Shown here piece after piece: positions 3,002 to 10,465 of a stretch of 32,000 nucleotides of DNA. The notes under the pieces were generated by a model. That model did not search any database. It was not told the origin of the DNA and saw only the letters and a list, made by a program, of their open reading frames with translations. This DNA is from Candidatus Jordarchaeales archaeon (GTDB lineage Archaea; Asgardarchaeota; Jordiarchaeia; Jordiarchaeales; Freyrarchaeaceae): positions 704,499 through 736,498 of the forward strand of contig JAWAHN010000001.1 of the NCBI GenBank assembly GCA_038889235.1, given 5' to 3'. Position 1 is the first letter of the stretch. Each line of letters opens with the position of its first letter. The translations under genes were made by a program, and so were the position numbers.

Positions 3002-3631
3002 CTAAACTCTTAAAATTCTATATATGTCAACATCCACGACATGAAATCTCTTGGTATGGAAACTGAAGAGAGCGGGGATAGGTAGCTTAACCGTAACTAT
3101 CTGGTCTATGTATCCACCTTGCTCTGCCACGAACTTCCTAATGAAGCGTCTAACTTTAAAGTTTGCTTTATGAATGGAGTATACAACATTAGCGATTTTA
3201 AGCGCTTTTTCTAGGAACAGTCTATCGCTGAAACGTCTACGGACGCCGAAAGGAGGGTTTTGAACTACAGTGTCTGCATCTCCTCTTAAATTTTTCAGGT
3301 CTATTAAGATCCAATCAACTTTATCATCTACACCTAATTGTTTAGCGTTCAGTTTCGCTATCCTTAGTACATTTGAATCCACATCCACGCCGACAACCCG
3401 CTTTGCACCAAGTATAGCGGCGCCCAAGGCTAGCATGCCGTTACCACATCCGAGGTCATAAACTACTTTTCCTTCGATGTCATTGTAAGTGTATGCTGCC
3501 ATAAAGAGGAGAGTTGATGCTATTCTGCTATGTGTAGGGTATTGTTCCAGTTTAACCTGAGGACATGGATTTCTCTCTAAACTTTCAAGTACGAGTTCAA
3601 GATGTTTGCGCTTTAATTTAACTTCAGCCAT
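3002..3631 (-). CDS. METTL5-like RNA N6-adenine methyltransferase
   Basis: LEQYPT, SAM-binding DLGCGNG and catalytic NPPFG motifs; conserved neighbour of dph2 and csl4. Confidence 0.88.
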   Translation of the reverse strand: MAEVKLKRKHLELVLESLERNPCPQVKLEQYPTHSRIASTLLFMAAYTYNDIEGKVVYDLGCGNGMLALGAAILGAKRVVGVDVDSNVLRIAKLNAKQLGVDDKVDWILIDLKNLRGDADTVVQNPPFGVRRRFSDRLFLEKALKIANVVYSIHKANFKVRRFIRKFVAEQGGYIDQIVTVKLPIPALFSFHTKRFHVVDVDIYRILRV

Positions 3632-4643
3632 TCTCTTTCCCTGCCTCCCTAGTCAATATAGGATATATCTCTGTCCAGTCTCTCCTTCCAAGAACTACTT
3701 CGACTTCATTTGGAGTCAACACGGGAATGGGAAAGCGTGGTCCATCCTCGATTGCAATTCTAGGACATGCCGTCACGACAAGCGCTTCTATATCTTTTAA
3801 ATTGGTGAAGCGTTCAGGGGATACTTCTCTCATGGCTAACAAATAAACTTCTTTCCCCGAAGCGCGCAAGGTCTCTTTCAACTTTTTTACTAATTTTAAA
3901 CGAGTTTGACCAGATTTTAACCCTATAACTATACCGAACTTTTCCGCGTTTTTGGCTCTACATATCTGAGCAAATCTCTCAAGGAGTATGCGTTTAACTT
4001 GTGGCGTCACGTCACACGCTTCCCCCGTGTAAGGGTCTAGCGATATGACACGTTTTCCGGTGAAGAGCGCCATACCCACCGCATGGAAAAAACCACCACC
4101 TATAAAGAGGACAGTGTCGGCTTCCGATGAAAAAACATTAGAGAAGTCGCAGCCTAATACTTGGCCGGGGTAGGGTGCTTTCTTACTACACGCCTTAAGA
4201 ACCACTTTGACCCCAGCGTTTTCTAATGCTTTTTTAACTTTGGGTAGTTTTTTAGCGTGCTGCACTGTTGACGTAAGAATCAAGCGCTTTAATCCAAAGC
4301 GTGACGATACATTAACCGCTTGATCTTCGATCTCGCGTGTCGAAAAACACTCAACGAAAATAACGGGTATAGTGGTGTTAATGGGCCAAGGAGCATGCCC
4401 AAAATGAATCAAGAGGTCTGCTTTAAGAGCGGTAGATTCATGGATTGCTAAATCGCACGCCCCCCAGCATGGGTCAAGCGATATAATAACTTCGGCTCTT
4501 GTCTTTTCCTCTAAGATGGATGCGACTTTTGTTGCGTAGGGAAGGAGACCTTCAGGGAATTGGAGGCAAACCCGCTGAGCCCTTCTCTCTTTAACTTCTG
4601 AAATTACCTTTTCAATTTCAAAGTCGAAGTCTTCCGCGTTCAT
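3624..4643 (-). CDS. dph2: Diphthamide biosynthesis radical-SAM enzyme Dph2
   Basis: LQFPEGL, CWGACD, HFGH, GQVLGCD and ACPRI motifs, which include the Fe-S cysteines. Confidence 0.95.
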   Translation of the reverse strand: MNAEDFDFEIEKVISEVKERRAQRVCLQFPEGLLPYATKVASILEEKTRAEVIISLDPCWGACDLAIHESTALKADLLIHFGHAPWPINTTIPVIFVECFSTREIEDQAVNVSSRFGLKRLILTSTVQHAKKLPKVKKALENAGVKVVLKACSKKAPYPGQVLGCDFSNVFSSEADTVLFIGGGFFHAVGMALFTGKRVISLDPYTGEACDVTPQVKRILLERFAQICRAKNAEKFGIVIGLKSGQTRLKLVKKLKETLRASGKEVYLLAMREVSPERFTNLKDIEALVVTACPRIAIEDGPRFPIPVLTPNEVEVVLGRRDWTEIYPILTREAGKENG

Positions 4644-4753
4644 AACGGGGAACCGCCTGAAACATGCCTGTTCCTACTAATTCTATCAAAAAGGAAAATA
4701 TTTTTTCTTCGTCTTAGACGATATTGTAACTGCTTTCAGACGAGGTGACGGAG

Positions 4754-5989
4754 ATGAGTAAAATAGAGCGCATCGAGGCGCGAAAAATATTTGATTCAAG
4801 GGGGAACCCGACAATAGAAGTAACAGTGTATGCTGGTGGCGTAATGGCGAGCGCGTGTGCTCCTTCTGGTGCGAGCGTCGGTAAATTCGAGGCGCAAGCG
4901 TTTCCTAAAGGAGGAGTTGAACAGTCAATTAAAGTAATCAAGGAACTTTCAGACGTGCTAAGAGGGATGAGTGTAGACGACCAAGCATCAATAGACATGA
5001 CCATCCGTAAATTTGATGGGACAGAGAACTTTAGCAGACTAGGGGGAAATGCTGCGATAGCGCTTTCCATAGCTGTCGCGAAGGCAGCATCTATTGTTAG
5101 AGGAGTGCCTTTATGCAAATACCTTAACAATGAATTAGAAGCACCTTTTCCGCTCAGTAATATAATCGGTGGCGGGGTTCATACTAAAGGAGATTCCATA
5201 GATTTTCAGGAGTTCCTAGTGCTTCCTGTAGGCGCCAAAAGTTTTAGGGAGGCTGCAAGTGTTAACGTAATGGTTCACAGAGAAGTGGCCCGCATTTTAA
5301 CAGAACGATACCCGAAATATGTGTTTGGAAGGAACGATGAAGGAGCGTGGGCAGCCCCTCTGACTATACGAGAAGCTATTGAAGTGCTTTTCTCAGCGAC
5401 GTGTAAGGTTGAAAGTGAAACAAATGTTAAGGTTAGAATGGGTATTGATGCTGCAGCGTCTGAACTTTGGGATGAAAAGAAGAAATCATACATTTACAGG
5501 AAAGAAGGGTTTGAGAAAAAAAGAGAGGAGCAAATTGAATACATATCTTCACTTATAGAAGAATACGATATAGCTTACTTCGAGGATCCGTTTAACGAAG
5601 AAGATTTTGAAGCTTTTGCGAGTTTGAAGAGCTCGCTAAAGAAAAAATGTATAATCACAGGGGATGACCTAACAGTAACCAACAGGAAAAGGATAGAGCT
5701 GGCTATTGAGAGGAGGGCCATAAATGGAGTAATAATAAAACCAAACCAGATAGGAACGCTTACGGAAACTAGAAAGGCTGTTGAGGTGGCTCTGTCAAAG
5801 AACGTTGTCCCAGTGGCGTCTCACAGATCGGGTGAAACGTGTGATCCAGCGTTAGCACATCTTGCGCTAGGAATGAAATGTCCCGTGATAAAGATAGGGA
5901 TTATGGGCGGTGAAAGAATAGTAAAAATAAACGAAATAATGAGGGTCGAAGAAGAGTTAGGGGTCAAAATGGCAAAGCCTCCGATTTGA
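4754..5989 (+). CDS. eno: Enolase (phosphopyruvate hydratase)
   Basis: DSRGNPTIEV, APSGAS, DFQEF, EDPF, GDDL, IKPNQIG and SHRSGET motifs. ATG 4754 follows SD gaggtga; the ORF track starts at GTG 4745. Confidence 0.95.
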   Translation: MSKIERIEARKIFDSRGNPTIEVTVYAGGVMASACAPSGASVGKFEAQAFPKGGVEQSIKVIKELSDVLRGMSVDDQASIDMTIRKFDGTENFSRLGGNAAIALSIAVAKAASIVRGVPLCKYLNNELEAPFPLSNIIGGGVHTKGDSIDFQEFLVLPVGAKSFREAASVNVMVHREVARILTERYPKYVFGRNDEGAWAAPLTIREAIEVLFSATCKVESETNVKVRMGIDAAASELWDEKKKSYIYRKEGFEKKREEQIEYISSLIEEYDIAYFEDPFNEEDFEAFASLKSSLKKKCIITGDDLTVTNRKRIELAIERRAINGVIIKPNQIGTLTETRKAVEVALSKNVVPVASHRSGETCDPALAHLALGMKCPVIKIGIMGGERIVKINEIMRVEEELGVKMAKPPI

Positions 5990-6002
5990 GGGGGTTTACA
6001 CC

Positions 6003-6449
6003 ATTTTTGCTGAGATAGCTGAGTTCATAGAGACAAGGTATCGTAACGCGCGAAAAATAGTTGAAGTGGGTGTTGGAAGAAAATACGAAGTGGCTGCTAG
6101 ACTGGCGAGCAATCTGACTGCAGAGCTTATTTTAACTGACTTAAATCCTAATTTTTTCGTAGGAGTCAGACTTGGAAGAAACGTCAAAATGATTGTTGAT
6201 GACATTTTTAACCCTGATTGGAAGTTGTATGAAGGGGCAGACTTAATATACGCTATAAGACCGAACCCAGAAGTGCAAAATCAGATACTTGAAGTGGCGT
6301 CAAGAGTAGGAGCAGATGTTCTTCTCAATGTCCTAAGCGGAGAGTGGATTGAAACGAACAATAAAAAAATGAAACACGTGTTGATCAATTATAAGGGAGT
6401 CACGTTACACCTCTTCCTTAATGTTTCCCGTAAAAGAGAAGAAACTTGA
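6003..6449 (+). CDS. UPF0146 family protein; start uncertain, possibly ATT 6003
   Basis: KIVEVGVG...ADLIYAIRPNPE pattern. The frame is open upstream of the track's GTG 6066 and encodes the expected N-terminal helix, but contains no ATG/GTG/TTG. Confidence 0.75.
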   Translation: MFAEIAEFIETRYRNARKIVEVGVGRKYEVAARLASNLTAELILTDLNPNFFVGVRLGRNVKMIVDDIFNPDWKLYEGADLIYAIRPNPEVQNQILEVASRVGADVLLNVLSGEWIETNNKKMKHVLINYKGVTLHLFLNVSRKREET

Positions 6450-6491
6450 TTTAACAGAGATTGTTAGCATGTATGTATGTACAATCTAATA

Positions 6492-6507
6492 AAAAAAGGT
6501 TTATAAA
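6492..6507 (+). promoter_or_regulatory. Putative BRE/TATA promoter of ppsA
   Basis: An A-rich BRE-like run followed by TTTATAAA (6500-6507), about 55 nt upstream of the TTG start. Confidence 0.5.
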
Positions 6508-6560
6508 AAAGCAGGAGTCACCCTTTTCATAGAAGGTACGGAATAATAAGGGGTGGGCAC

Positions 6561-8969
6561 TTGTCAAGGAATGAAAGATTTGTACTTTGGTTCGAAGAAG
6601 TAGGAAAGGAAGACGTGGCACTAGTGGGCGGAAAATGCGCGAATTTAGGAGAACTAATGACGAAAGCAAAGGTGCCGGTCCCGCCAGGGTTCGCTGTGAC
6701 AACACATGCTTTCAACTACTTCATTACCAAAACGAAAGTGAAAGATAAAATATTCAAAATACTTGAAGATATTGACGTCAAAGACTTGAAGCAGCTAGAA
6801 GAAGCCTCAAGAGAGATGAGGAGACTAATTGAGGAGGCGCGAATTCCCGAAGAAATAGAGACAGAGATCCTGAATGCTTACGACGAATTAACTAGGAAAG
6901 TTGGTAGAGAACCTCTTGTAGCTGTTCGTTCCAGCGCCTCGGCAGAGGATTGAGTTGGCTTCCCTCAATTGCCGGGCGCCAGCTTTGCTGGGCAGCAAGA
7001 AACGTATTTGAATGTTTGCAGAAGCGAGCTTTTAGAGAAGATTAAGAAATGTTGGAGCAGCCTTTACACCCCTAGGGCAATAGTATACAGAAAAGAGAAG
7101 GGCTTTAAGCACGAACACGTTTCGATAGGTGTTGCTGTACAAGAAATGGTTGATGCGAGATCTGCAGGGGTGATGTTTAGCATACACCCAACTACTGGTG
7201 AGAGGAATAAGATTCTCATAGAGGCAAGCTGGGGGCTCGGTGAGGCTGTTGTGAGCGGAGCAGTAACGCCCGATACGTACATAGTAGACAAAAACACTCT
7301 TGAAATACTTGAAAAACATATTGCTTCTAAGAAAGTTGAGTATGTAAGGGATCCTAAAACTGGAAAGACAGTACATTTAGAGGTGCCTAAGGAAAGACAG
7401 GACGCACCCGCTTTGAGTAACGAAGAAATAAAGACTCTGGCAAAATACGCGCTTCAGATAGAGAGACATTACGGTGTTCCTCAAGATATTGAATGGGCTG
7501 TGGATAGAGACGGAAGGATTTTTATACTGCAAGCAAGACCTGAAACTGTGCACTCGAAAGGCGTGCTTGTAGAGCAAAAACCGGTGGAAAGTGTGAGTGG
7601 AATAGAAGTTTTAGTGAGAGGGTTGCCGGTCTCCCCGGGGATAGGTGCTGGTAAAGTTAAGGTAATTCTTGACGTCAAAGAAATTCATAAAGTTCAGGAG
7701 GGGGACGTTCTTGTTACCAGGATGACAACGCCTGATTGGGTTCCAGCGATGAAAAAAGCGGTCGCGATAGTTACAGATGAGGGGGGTTATACCTGTCATG
7801 CAGCAATAGTGTCTCGTGAATTGGGTATCCCATGTGTTGTGGGTACGGGGAACGCAACAAAAGTGCTTGCGAACGTAGACGCTGTGACTGTGGATGGTAG
7901 TAAGGGATTGGTTTACCGTGGAATAGTAGAGAAGGTTGAAAAAGCTGAGACACCAACCGTCGTCACAACCGCTATGATTCCGACTGCGACCAAAATATTT
8001 GTTAACCTTTCAATACCGGAGATCGCCGACAAAGTTGCAAGCGAAACTATGGCCGACGGTGTTGGACTTCTCAGAGCGGAGCACATGATGATAACTATAG
8101 GTAAACATCCTAGAAAGCTCATAGAAGAAGGTGGAGAAAGCCTAATGATTGAAAGGTTTGCAGAGGGCATCAAAAAAGTTGCTGAAGCATTTTATCCTAG
8201 ACCCGTAGTGTATAGGTTCTTAGACTTCAAACCAGACGAATTCTTAGCTTTGGAAGGAGGAGAAAAATACGAGCTTGAAGCGGGACACGTTGGACCAAAC
8301 CCAATGATAGGATACAGAGGCCAATTTAGATATGTCAAAGAGCCAGACATATTCAGGTTGGAGTGCAGAGCGGTGAAGAAAGTCAGAGAGGAATACGGGC
8401 TGAAAAATGTCTGGGTTATGGTGCCATTCGTTAACACAGTGGAAATTTTCAGAGAAGTTAAAAGAATAATGAAAGAAGAAGGGCTTGACCGAGAAAAGGA
8501 TCCTGACTTTAAGCTATGGATAATGGTTGAGGTTCCGAGTAGCGTCTTTCTCATAGACAAGTTCTGCGAAGAAGGCATAGATGGAATATCATTTGGAACC
8601 AATGACCTCACAATGCTAGTGCTGGGAGTGGACAGAAATGATGCTTCGGTTCAAGAAGTTTACGACGAACGTAATTTAGCAGTACTTAGGGCGATAGCAT
8701 ACACTATAAAGATATGTAGGAAGTACGGGGTAACTACTTCTGTGTGTGGGCAAGCACCCAGCGTGTATCCGGACTACTTGGAGTTCCTAGTGAGACTGGG
8801 AGCCACTTCGATAAGTGTGAATCCAGACGCTGTGAAAAGAACACGTGAAATGGTAGCAAGAATAGAGCAGCAAATCCTCATGGAAAAAGCTCTAGGCATC
8901 AAACCTAGAGTCAAGATAGGGAAATACTTCCTCGAGGAAGTGGAGTTCTGGAAGCTGGCAAACGACTAA
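6561..8969 (+). CDS. ppsA: Phosphoenolpyruvate synthase (pyruvate,water dikinase); exons 6561-6950 and 6969-8969, about 796 aa after splicing
   Basis: [22 protein letters not shown]|[19 protein letters not shown], phospho-His motif [15 protein letters not shown] and FGTNDLT. The two ORF-track pieces are in the same frame, separated by an 18-nt insertion. Confidence 0.93.
6951..6968 (+). other. Candidate bulge-helix-bulge intron in ppsA mRNA (UGAGUUGGCUUCCCUCAA)
   Basis: Outer stems GCGCC/GGCGC and CGGCA/UGCCG; central helix GAGG/CCUC; 3-nt bulges AU|U and AA|U; inner stem GAG/UUC. Cutting after the second nucleotide of each bulge restores GAG GAU UUG CCG (E-D-L-P). Confidence 0.85.
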
Positions 8970-9028
8970 GGAAGCCCCTACATTTTCTTCTCATTCAGCG
9001 AAACGCTTTAAAAACAATTCAGTTAATT

Positions 9029-10465
9029 TTGAAAGTGATTTCAATAGCGAAGGAGAGTGGCATTATTTCGGCGCAAAAATATTATCGTACAATATCCGAA
9101 ATCACCGGTCCACTTGTTATAGTGAGTGGTGTGAAAGACGTAGCTTACAATGAAGTAGTTCTCATAGAACTTCCTAATGGCGAAACAAGAAGAGGAACAG
9201 TTTTAGAAGTTGGGTTAGGTAAGGCTGTAGTTCAAGTCTTCGAGGGAACTAGAGGAATCGACGCCAGGAACACCACTGTCAGATTTACTGGGGAGACGAT
9301 GAAGCTGCCTGTCTCCATCGAGATGATGGGACGCATCTTTAATGGTTCAGGGGAGCCCATAGACGGGGGACCACCAATAATCCCTGAAGACGAGTTAGAT
9401 ATTCACGGTTACCCGATCAACCCTTATGCAAGAGAATACCCCAGAGAGTTTATCCAAACAGGTTTAAGCGTAATAGATGGTTTAAACTCTCTAGTCAGGG
9501 GGCAGAAGTTACCGATATTTTCAGGAGCAGGGTTACCTCACAATAGGATAGCTGTCCAAATAGCTAGGCAGGCTAAAGTTCTGGGGAAAGAGGAAGACTT
9601 CGCCGTTGTTTTCGCCGCAATGGGTATAACAGCAGAGGAGGCAAGATTTTTCAGGGCTGACTTCGAAAGAACTGGAGCGTTAGAAAGAGTTGTCCTTTTC
9701 ATGAACCTTGCAGATGACCCTGCGATTGAGAGAATAATAACTCCCCGAGTAGCCTTAACGGCAGCAGAGTACTTGGCATATGAACACAACATGCACATCT
9801 TAGTGATACTCACAGACATGACGAACTACGCTGAAGCTTTAAGAGAAATAAGCGCCGCAAGAGAAGAAGTGCCGGGAAGAAGAGGGTACCCAGGATACCT
9901 TTACACCGACCTCGCAACAATCTATGAGAGAGCTGGACGCATAAGAGGGAAGAAGGGAACGATAACTCAAATGCCAATTCTAACAATGCCCAACGATGAC
10001 ATTACTCACCCAATCCCAGACCTTACAGGCTATATCACGGAGGGACAGCTAATTGTTGATAGAGGACTTCACAGAAAAGGCATATACCCGCCAATTGACC
10101 CAAGACCAAGCTTAAGCAGGCTCATGAAAGAAGGTATAGGGCCGGGAAGAACTAGGAAAGACCACAGAGAAGTTAGTGACCAATTATACTATGCTTATAG
10201 TGAAGCAGTAGACCTCAGAGCATTAGTAGCTGTCGTAGGCGAGGAGGCGCTCCTTCCGAGAGACAAAAAATATCTAGAGTTCGGTGAAGTTTTCGAAAAG
10301 AGGTTCATTAATCAAGGAGAGTACGAAGAACGTAGCATAGAAGAAACACTGGATCTTGGATGGGAGTTACTAAGCATGTTCCCTGAAAGCGAGCTGAAAA
10401 GGATAGACCCAGAAACAATAAACTGGGCTAAACGAGAAGGAAAGTACACGTACGTCGGAGAGTAG
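9029..10465 (+). CDS. atpB: A/V-type ATP synthase subunit B; start uncertain
   Basis: [45 protein letters not shown] and [15 protein letters not shown] motifs. Confidence 0.96.

Follow-up and report, generated by a model that had tools for sequence, protein, structure and literature searches.

The stretch of DNA analysed here, hereafter called the window, comprises 32,000 nucleotides (nt) of a Candidatus Jordarchaeales genome (G000, 2.14 Mb, 95 % complete; window G000:C1:704499-736498). At positions 6561-8969 of its forward strand it carries a gene for phosphoenolpyruvate (PEP) synthase (pyruvate, water dikinase), ppsA, the reading frame of which is broken by a TGA at 6951. An insert of 18 nt, 6951-6968, lies inside the invariant motif RSSAxAED/LPxASFAG and begins with this in-frame TGA. 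The insert had previously been proposed, from the letters of the DNA and without database searches (hereafter the sequence-only reading), to be a bulge-helix-bulge (BHB) intron of the tRNA type, and this proposal was examined with profile searches, RNA folding, orthologous genes and public sequencing runs.

The open reading frame (ORF) upstream of the insert, 6561-6950, matched positions 3-131 of the NCBIfam PEP synthase profile NF005057, and the downstream ORF, 6969-8966, matched positions 132-796 (E = 2.6e-257). The two halves thus adjoin at profile positions 131/132, and PpsA is complete apart from the 18-nt insert. Exon 1 of the proposed gene (6561-6950, + strand) consists of the N-terminal 130 codons and ends in RSSASAED; its putative TTG start codon at 6561 is the choice of the ORF finder. 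Exon 2 (6969-8969, + strand), which corresponds to NF005057 132-796, has 666 codons and a stop codon. Excision of 6951-6968 gives the sequence GAG GAU/UUG CCG, read as E-D-L-P. There is a small ambiguity of register, as excision of 6952-6969 would give an identical product. No other gene of the PPDK_N family (ppsA/PPDK) is present in the genome.

The unconstrained minimum free energy (MFE) fold of 6928-6985 is a helix-bulge-helix-bulge-helix of -24.5 kcal/mol (z = -2.05), and 7 of 200 shuffled sequences folded as well as this. All elements are on the + strand. The 5' strand of the outer helix (6934-6944) falls in the exon 1 codons for S-A-S-A and includes GCGCC (6934-6938) and CGGCA (6940-6944), with U6939 unpaired in the MFE fold, whereas the 3' strand (6970-6979) falls in the exon 2 codons for L-P-G-A (UGCCG 6970-6974 and GGCGC 6975-6979). 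The central helix of 4 bp is formed between GAGG in the exon (6945-6948) and CCUC in the intron (6963-6966), a pairing found both in the MFE fold and in the alignment scoring described below. The first bulge, AUU (6949-6951), contains the predicted 5' splice site after 6950, placed there by the MFE fold and the cut rule known from the cbf5 introns, in which cleavage takes place between the second and third bulge residues (PMC2738675). The second bulge, AAU (6967-6969), contains the 3' splice site after 6968, placed by the fold and by an RNA contig (see below). The inner helix with its 5-nt loop (6952-6962) is wholly within the intron, GAG (6952-6954) being paired with UUC (6960-6962). The 3-nt bulges follow the canonical tRNA BHB in that each is located on the 3' side of its own central-helix strand. 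All positions and pairings given for the insert in the sequence-only reading hold in the sequence and in the unconstrained fold, the sole difference being a 1-nt slip in the inner stem of the MFE fold; here the register of the sequence-only reading is favoured because a related strain (L115) has GAG/CUC at these positions.

Orthologous ppsA sequences were collected from the genomes of the GTDB class Jordarchaeia (11 species genomes, 3 genera) and from metagenomic strains found via the N-terminal fragment. One locus was excluded (L004, G001:C46), a metagenome-assembled genome (MAG) of the same genus as the window genome, in which a run of N, possibly a scaffold gap, covers the ppsA intron directly after GAGGACAGAGG. 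An insert at the identical site was found in 15 sequences (14 distinct) representing 3 genera and 2 families of the class ("Freyarchaeia"). Every readable ppsA of the class is interrupted at this site and none is without the intron, which is also present in same-genus strains with 86 % and 78 % nucleotide identity. The inserts are 18, 19, 20, 29 or 30 nt long and belong to four unrelated sequence types: type A (18 nt) with the inner region GAG-loop-YUC, type B (20 nt) with GAGRC-loop-GYCUC, type C (19 nt) with GGUU-UUCC-AGCC, and type D (29-30 nt) with AAG...CUU and an inner AAUGG/CCAUU stem. The BHB is present in 15 of 15 sequences, and cuts between the second and third bulge nucleotides restore the conserved motif in each of them. 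With 19, 20 or 29 nt the insert shifts the frame, so that reading through it cannot rescue the gene in the genomes concerned, and there it must leave the RNA.

In 79 ppsA loci of other lineages the motif is contiguous, these lineages including Baldr-, Odin-, Kor- and Bathyarchaeia, Hydrothermarchaeota and many bacteria, and interrupted loci were found solely in Jordarchaeia. The comparison of orthologues for presence or absence and for covariation, which the sequence-only reading had put forward as a check, was thus favourable to it, with a BHB insert in all 14 distinct orthologues, compensatory changes among them (see below) and no interruption in the 79 other loci. On the intron interpretation, the common ancestor of the Jordarchaeia sampled already had the intron, which later diverged in sequence and length while the BHB was kept. 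In the window genome, the probability that a minimal BHB (4+3+2 pairs) of a given length arises by chance at a given site is approximately 1.7e-4; the BHB of ppsA, with 7+4+3 pairs, is stronger than this minimum and is placed at the only position which the protein alignment requires. Given this probability, chance can hardly be taken seriously as the origin of a BHB that recurs in four independent sequence types.

The pairing was scored on an alignment of the 14 distinct sequences. Standard pairs were formed in 91.6 % of the alignment cells, compared with 45-58 % when the 3' partners were slid by 1-3 columns. In the central helix 98.2 % of the cells were paired, and in the inner helix 100 %, with two-sided changes in two of its three pairs. 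The three outer-helix pairs beside the central helix (GCA/UGC) and four of the five distal pairs (GCGCC/GGCGC) were formed in 14 of 14 sequences, the fifth distal pair in 11 of 14 and the two middle pairs in just 6 of 14. Compensatory changes also occurred within the intron types (GAGAC/GUCUC and GAGGC/GCCUC; AAUGG/CCAUU and AAUUG/CAAUU), and a G.U pair of the inner stem in the window is replaced by G-C in strain L115. In the part of the exons which forms the helices, 4 of 11 codons for conserved residues were identical across five lineages, compared with 7.5 % gene-wide (binomial P ~0.007). The conservation of the BHB, the covariation and the constraint on synonymous sites in the exon helices together indicate selection for the RNA structure, which is sensible only if the structure is used.

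The intron-bearing PpsA proteins read RSSASAED, whereas the 79 intron-less ones read RSSAT[ASGT]ED (window 6937-6944, the S-A codons preceding E-D). In the group with inserts of 18-20 nt, the Thr to Ser change (ACN to TCN) provides nucleotides of the outer helix. Either the PpsA protein may have adapted to the RNA structure or the RNA structure to the protein.

Both parts of ppsA are conserved as protein. Across the class, amino acid identity is 62-75 % for exon 1 and 70-84 % for exon 2, and codons at conserved residues are identical in just 37-49 % of cases. These values argue that ppsA is not a pseudogene and that both of its halves are under purifying selection.

Four sequencing runs were compared with window positions 6500-9000, one of DNA (X1) and three of RNA (X4, X6 and X8). 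In X1, a hot-spring metagenome which is probably the source of the window genome, the entire stretch was found in one 61.7-kb contig at a depth of 84, and the 18 nt were kept; the presence of the insertion in the DNA, as supposed in the sequence-only reading, was thereby confirmed. The metatranscriptome X4, from a sediment sample of a study other than that of the window, contained a single contig crossing the site (record 4, 283 nt, depth 11, window 6883-7183), in which exactly 18 nt were missing at 6951. The junction in this contig is the one that the BHB cut rule predicts, so the sequence anticipated for the spliced product was seen in RNA, although from a strain approximately 96 % identical to the window, the contig differing at 11 further positions out of 283. 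The X4 differences are mostly synonymous (33 of 38 in ppsA codons when all X4 contigs are counted), and the contig can therefore be regarded as the transcribed, selected ppsA of that strain. Run X8 gave no match on ppsA.

Strain L115 (P0002) was considered as the possible DNA counterpart of the X4 strain and rejected, as it is another species with 86 % identity and has 15 of 39 X4 alleles; it carries the intron too. Another X4 contig (record 3, 6561-6874) ends in a 30-nt tail that matches 7154-7183 (28/30) in place of the colinear upstream sequence. The tail is not a repeat of the window (10/30 identity to the colinear sequence), nor is it explained by a second BHB of a circular RNA, the central helix of which was unpaired when checked by hand. 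A chimera, an artefact of the assembly graph and a back-joined RNA are conceivable origins.

Two full-length EndA paralogues, each with the N- and the C-terminal domain (PF01974 and PF02778), are encoded in the genome at L111:1192-1779 and L112:1474-2058; they have 196 and 194 amino acids and 33 % identity. One of these keeps the Tyr...His...Lys pattern and the other is without the catalytic His. The pair is probably the expected signature of a catalytic alpha and a structural beta subunit, i.e. of an (alpha-beta)2 type enzyme. This type has a broad substrate range (PMC5829648), and the state with two EndA paralogues was found in 44 of 60 Asgard genomes (bioRxiv 10.64898/2026.10.13.758758). 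The genome's only gene for the RNA ligase RtcB (PF01139, E = 1.6e-180; G000:C1:704115-705422, - strand) is represented in the window by its 3' part (1-924) and runs off the window start. It is located approximately 6 kb upstream of the intron-bearing ppsA, a proximity which is probably a coincidence.

With ARAGORN, which finds introns of the anticodon loop only, 14 tRNA genes were detected genome-wide; 10 have introns, and for one a 1,333-nt 'intron' was called. Most tRNA genes of the genome presumably escape detection because their introns are multiple or non-canonical. In Freyarchaeia and Atabeyarchaeia, 92-95 % of tRNA genes bear introns, frequently more than one per gene and frequently at positions that are non-canonical (PMC11291895), and the low count obtained with ARAGORN fits such intron-crowded tRNA genes.

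We consider it very probable that 6951-6968 is a BHB intron of the tRNA type in the pre-mRNA of the genome's sole PEP synthase gene. The central claim of the sequence-only reading, that a BHB intron is removed between the second and third bulge nucleotides with restoration of E-D-L-P, is upheld by the structure found throughout the class, by the insert lengths that are not multiples of three, by the X4 contig and by the presence of EndA and RtcB. The case appears to be one of the rare instances in which an archaeal mRNA is spliced, and is supported by structure, conservation, restoration of the frame, a molecule without the 18 nt in an RNA library, and the available machinery.

In the proposed mechanism, the exon codons for S-A-S-A-E-D in the transcript would pair with the exon codons for L-P-G-A and with CCUC of the intron, giving the outer helix, the 4-bp central helix and the two 3-nt bulges, while a short hairpin of the intron would form the inner helix. 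The archaeal splicing endonuclease, probably an (alpha-beta)2 heterotetramer of the two EndA paralogues, would cut between nucleotides 2 and 3 of each bulge; EndA-dependent cleavage is a prediction from the sequence. The exons, with GCAGAGGAU joined to UUGCCGGGC at the predicted junction (GAGGAU/UUGCCG), would then be ligated, presumably by RtcB, to encode an intact PpsA of 796 residues, and the 18-nt intron would probably be degraded or freed in the form of a small circle. Unless the transcript is spliced, translation ends at the TGA after residue 130, and splicing is thus obligatory for a functional enzyme. It is probably constitutive. The suggestion that gluconeogenesis is placed under the control of the splicing machinery was not borne out beyond this requirement, as there was no evidence of regulation and the only RNA contig seen was fully spliced.

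Several observations weigh against the intron interpretation. In the group with inserts of 29 or 30 nt the outer helix consists of 3 bp beside the bulge followed by a 2x2 internal loop, so that the BHB is somewhat relaxed. In a complete Freyarchaeia chromosome (CP147778.1; L012/L036) the 30-nt intron has CCCC instead of CCUC, which produces an A.C mismatch in the central helix, the sole such departure among the 14 sequences. The free consensus computed with RNAalifold prefers a slipped, continuously stacked register over the BHB, and for this reason the BHB was scored explicitly. On the RNA side, Logan contigs cannot reveal an unspliced precursor or an excised intron, and raw reads of the metatranscriptome X6, from the source study, included none of ppsA, although with 3 % of the run read this is no test. 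Finally, the spliced contig is from a strain approximately 4 % divergent, in the sample of another study, and loss of the intron from the DNA of that strain would look alike.

According to this last explanation, which we regard as improbable, the insert in the DNA is real but the X4 RNA came from a strain with the intron lost, the intron-bearing gene itself being spliced inefficiently or not at all. The 11 differences in 283 positions and the separate origin of the X4 sample leave room for it, and in Crenarchaeota the cbf5 intron is known to have been lost (PMC2738675). The intron is, however, kept in all 14 distinct sequences of the class, including the same-genus strains at 86 % and 78 % identity, and the selection for RNA structure evident from BHB conservation, covariation and the synonymous constraint in the exon helices is contrary to an intron that is not removed. 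Furthermore, the interrupted gene is the only ppsA/PPDK of the genome and is under purifying selection.

A split gene, with two polypeptides which assemble, or a decaying pseudogene, with an incidental hairpin in either case, is very unlikely. Annotation pipelines do call two genes at this locus, as the sequence-only reading had expected of them (NCBI labels the N-terminal pieces 'PEP/pyruvate-binding domain-containing protein'), and a TTG is available at 6969. The break, however, is inside an invariant motif, and the second piece has no conserved start, the positions chosen by gene callers varying across strains from overlap with the first gene to approximately 55 nt downstream. Purifying selection on both halves across the class counters decay, and a BHB kept through four unrelated insert sequences and an RNA molecule without the insert would both be left unexplained.

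Translational recoding, either by reading UGA as selenocysteine (Sec) or by ribosomal bypass of the 18 nt as in T4 gene 60, has an appeal in the window genome, where the insert is in frame and starts with TGA, and Jordarchaeia do have Sec machinery and use UGA for Sec in some genes (PMC9723677). It is nevertheless hardly credible. The inserts of 19, 20 and 29 nt in orthologues shift the frame and start with AGA, AGG or AAA, which makes Sec read-through impossible there; UGA occurs solely in the 18-nt type, and no stop follows GAY in the other orthologues. Six extra residues inside RSSAxAEDLP were found in none of 79 other PpsA sequences. There are no matched take-off and landing codons for a bypass (GAU at take-off; CAA/AAU before the landing site), no Sec insertion sequence (SECIS) or other Rfam match was found in 6300-9400, and the 18 nt are missing from the RNA contig. 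An artefact of assembly or sequencing that added them can practically be dismissed, for although MAGs can contain errors, nothing specific points to one here, the insert is supported at depth 84 within the single X1 contig, and it is found in at least 13 other independent assemblies, among them the curated complete chromosome CP147778.1. A self-splicing intron of group I or group II was rejected, as the inserts are 18-30 nt long, the ribozyme cores require hundreds of nucleotides, and there was no Rfam match.

The expectation of wider mRNA splicing in the lineage gained support from two further genes of the genome which are split in a similar manner (locus L114). In kae1, a 14-nt BHB insert is located at C1:846098-846111 (- strand), its removal restores SQGPG/LGPCLR, and the two halves match positions 1-78 and 80-323 of the Kae1 profile. 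In cbf5, a 14-nt BHB insert is located at C1:835917-835930 (+ strand), and the halves match positions 2-68 and 73-322 of the Cbf5 profile; 8 residues at this junction are unaligned and the exact splice register may be off. A genome-wide screen for BHB motifs (4+3+2 pairs) with inserts of 11-150 nt, the removal of which brings together two open frames, each 50 codons or longer, recovered ppsA, kae1 and cbf5. The screen gave 4,404 hits and a decoy made from the mirror image ('anti-BHB') 4,317, and BHB motifs were not enriched whatever the stringency; the screen is unfit as a census because ordinary gene-to-gene junctions swamp the signal.

Since similar introns occur in housekeeping genes with no relation to one another, the lineage as a whole seems to tolerate BHB introns, or to have let them spread, which is unlike a pathway-specific switch. 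It is possible, though we consider it doubtful, that the ppsA intron is one of a genome-wide set of endonuclease-type introns which spread from tRNA genes into many protein genes of Jordarchaeia, including those of central carbon metabolism. If this were so, an Asgard lineage would routinely need RNA splicing for expression of its proteome, the balance of EndA and RtcB or temperature-dependent folding of the BHB could gate pathways such as gluconeogenesis, and the way in which introns invade coding genes could be studied on a natural prokaryotic model among the closest relatives of eukaryotes.

BHB introns in pre-mRNA are known from cbf5 of Crenarchaeota, in Desulfurococcales and Sulfolobales (Watanabe 2002; Yoshinari 2006; Yokobori 2009, PMC2738675). 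Like these, the ppsA intron is short, lies in the coding sequence, is defined by a BHB cut between the second and third bulge residues, interrupts a conserved motif of a catalytic region, is restricted to a lineage in which its length and sequence vary by species, and is found in a host with an EndA that is (here probably) hetero-oligomeric. Unlike cbf5, which encodes an RNA-modification enzyme in Thermoproteota, ppsA encodes an enzyme of central carbon metabolism in an Asgard archaeon (Jordarchaeia). Most cbf5 introns have a relaxed BHB, whereas the motif of ppsA in the window is a strict canonical hBHBh' with 3-nt bulges and a 4-bp helix, and splicing of ppsA is supported by sequence data.

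An intron in the 5' untranslated region (UTR) of the Haloferax volcanii HVO_1309 mRNA also has a BHB, and was verified by EndA knock-down in vivo and in vitro (Schwarz et al. 2020, PMC7714728); cbf5 had until then been the sole case of an mRNA processed by the endonuclease (PMC7714728). The sequence-only reading correctly named cbf5 as the well-characterised archaeal mRNA intron and left this substrate unmentioned. Both HVO_1309 and, by prediction, ppsA are mRNA substrates of the archaeal splicing endonuclease in which removal of the intron matters for expression, but the HVO_1309 intron is in an untranslated leader and leaves the frame intact, whereas that of ppsA is inside the coding sequence and its removal is obligatory for the protein. 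The tRNA introns of Freyarchaeia and Atabeyarchaeia (Valentin-Alvarado 2024, PMC11291895; bioRxiv 10.64898/2026.10.13.758758) share with the ppsA intron the lineage, the motif, a size of 10-30 nt and presumably the EndA/RtcB pathway. The ppsA intron differs from them in belonging to a protein gene, and neither of these two reports describes protein-coding introns. Searches of the PMC and bioRxiv literature for mRNA introns in Asgard archaea yielded papers on tRNA introns only.

Within the literature that could be searched, introns of the splicing-endonuclease type inside archaeal coding sequences have hitherto been known from cbf5 of Crenarchaeota only, in addition to the 5' UTR case of Haloferax, and the intron of ppsA looks like the first one found in a gene of central metabolism. 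The phenomenon thereby reaches a metabolic enzyme with a housekeeping role and the Asgard archaea, which among prokaryotes are closest to the eukaryotes; there, the splicing of a protein gene is conserved over class-level divergence and has left a signature of selection on synonymous sites of the exons. In eukaryotes, a short intron of the HAC1 and XBP1 mRNAs is removed by Ire1, which cuts stem-loops, and the exons are joined by tRNA ligase or RtcB; this splicing changes the protein made and is part of a regulated stress response. The ppsA intron resembles it in being a short intron of the coding sequence, which would be removed by an endonuclease with joining by a ligase of the tRNA type. It differs in that the endonuclease would be of the EndA/Sen type rather than Ire1, and in that HAC1/XBP1 splicing is regulated, whereas no evidence of regulation was found for ppsA.

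The interruption also has consequences for annotation. With ppsA annotated as a short 'PEP/pyruvate-binding domain' protein and a truncated synthase, gluconeogenic PEP synthesis is perhaps mis-scored in metabolic reconstructions, and other genes split by BHB introns are probably mis-called as well. The 46 nt of the ppsA motif provide a compact substrate for studying the specificity of Asgard EndA.

Upstream of ppsA (window 3624-6449) are genes for a diphthamide synthase (- strand), enolase (4745-5989, + strand) and a UPF0146 protein (6066-6449, + strand). The order enolase-UPF0146-ppsA was found in all five strain contigs from which the upstream flank was recovered (L115, L119, L120, L122 and L123), and the order UPF0146-ppsA in three more (L116, L117 and L118). 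The three genes make up a small cluster of PEP metabolism.

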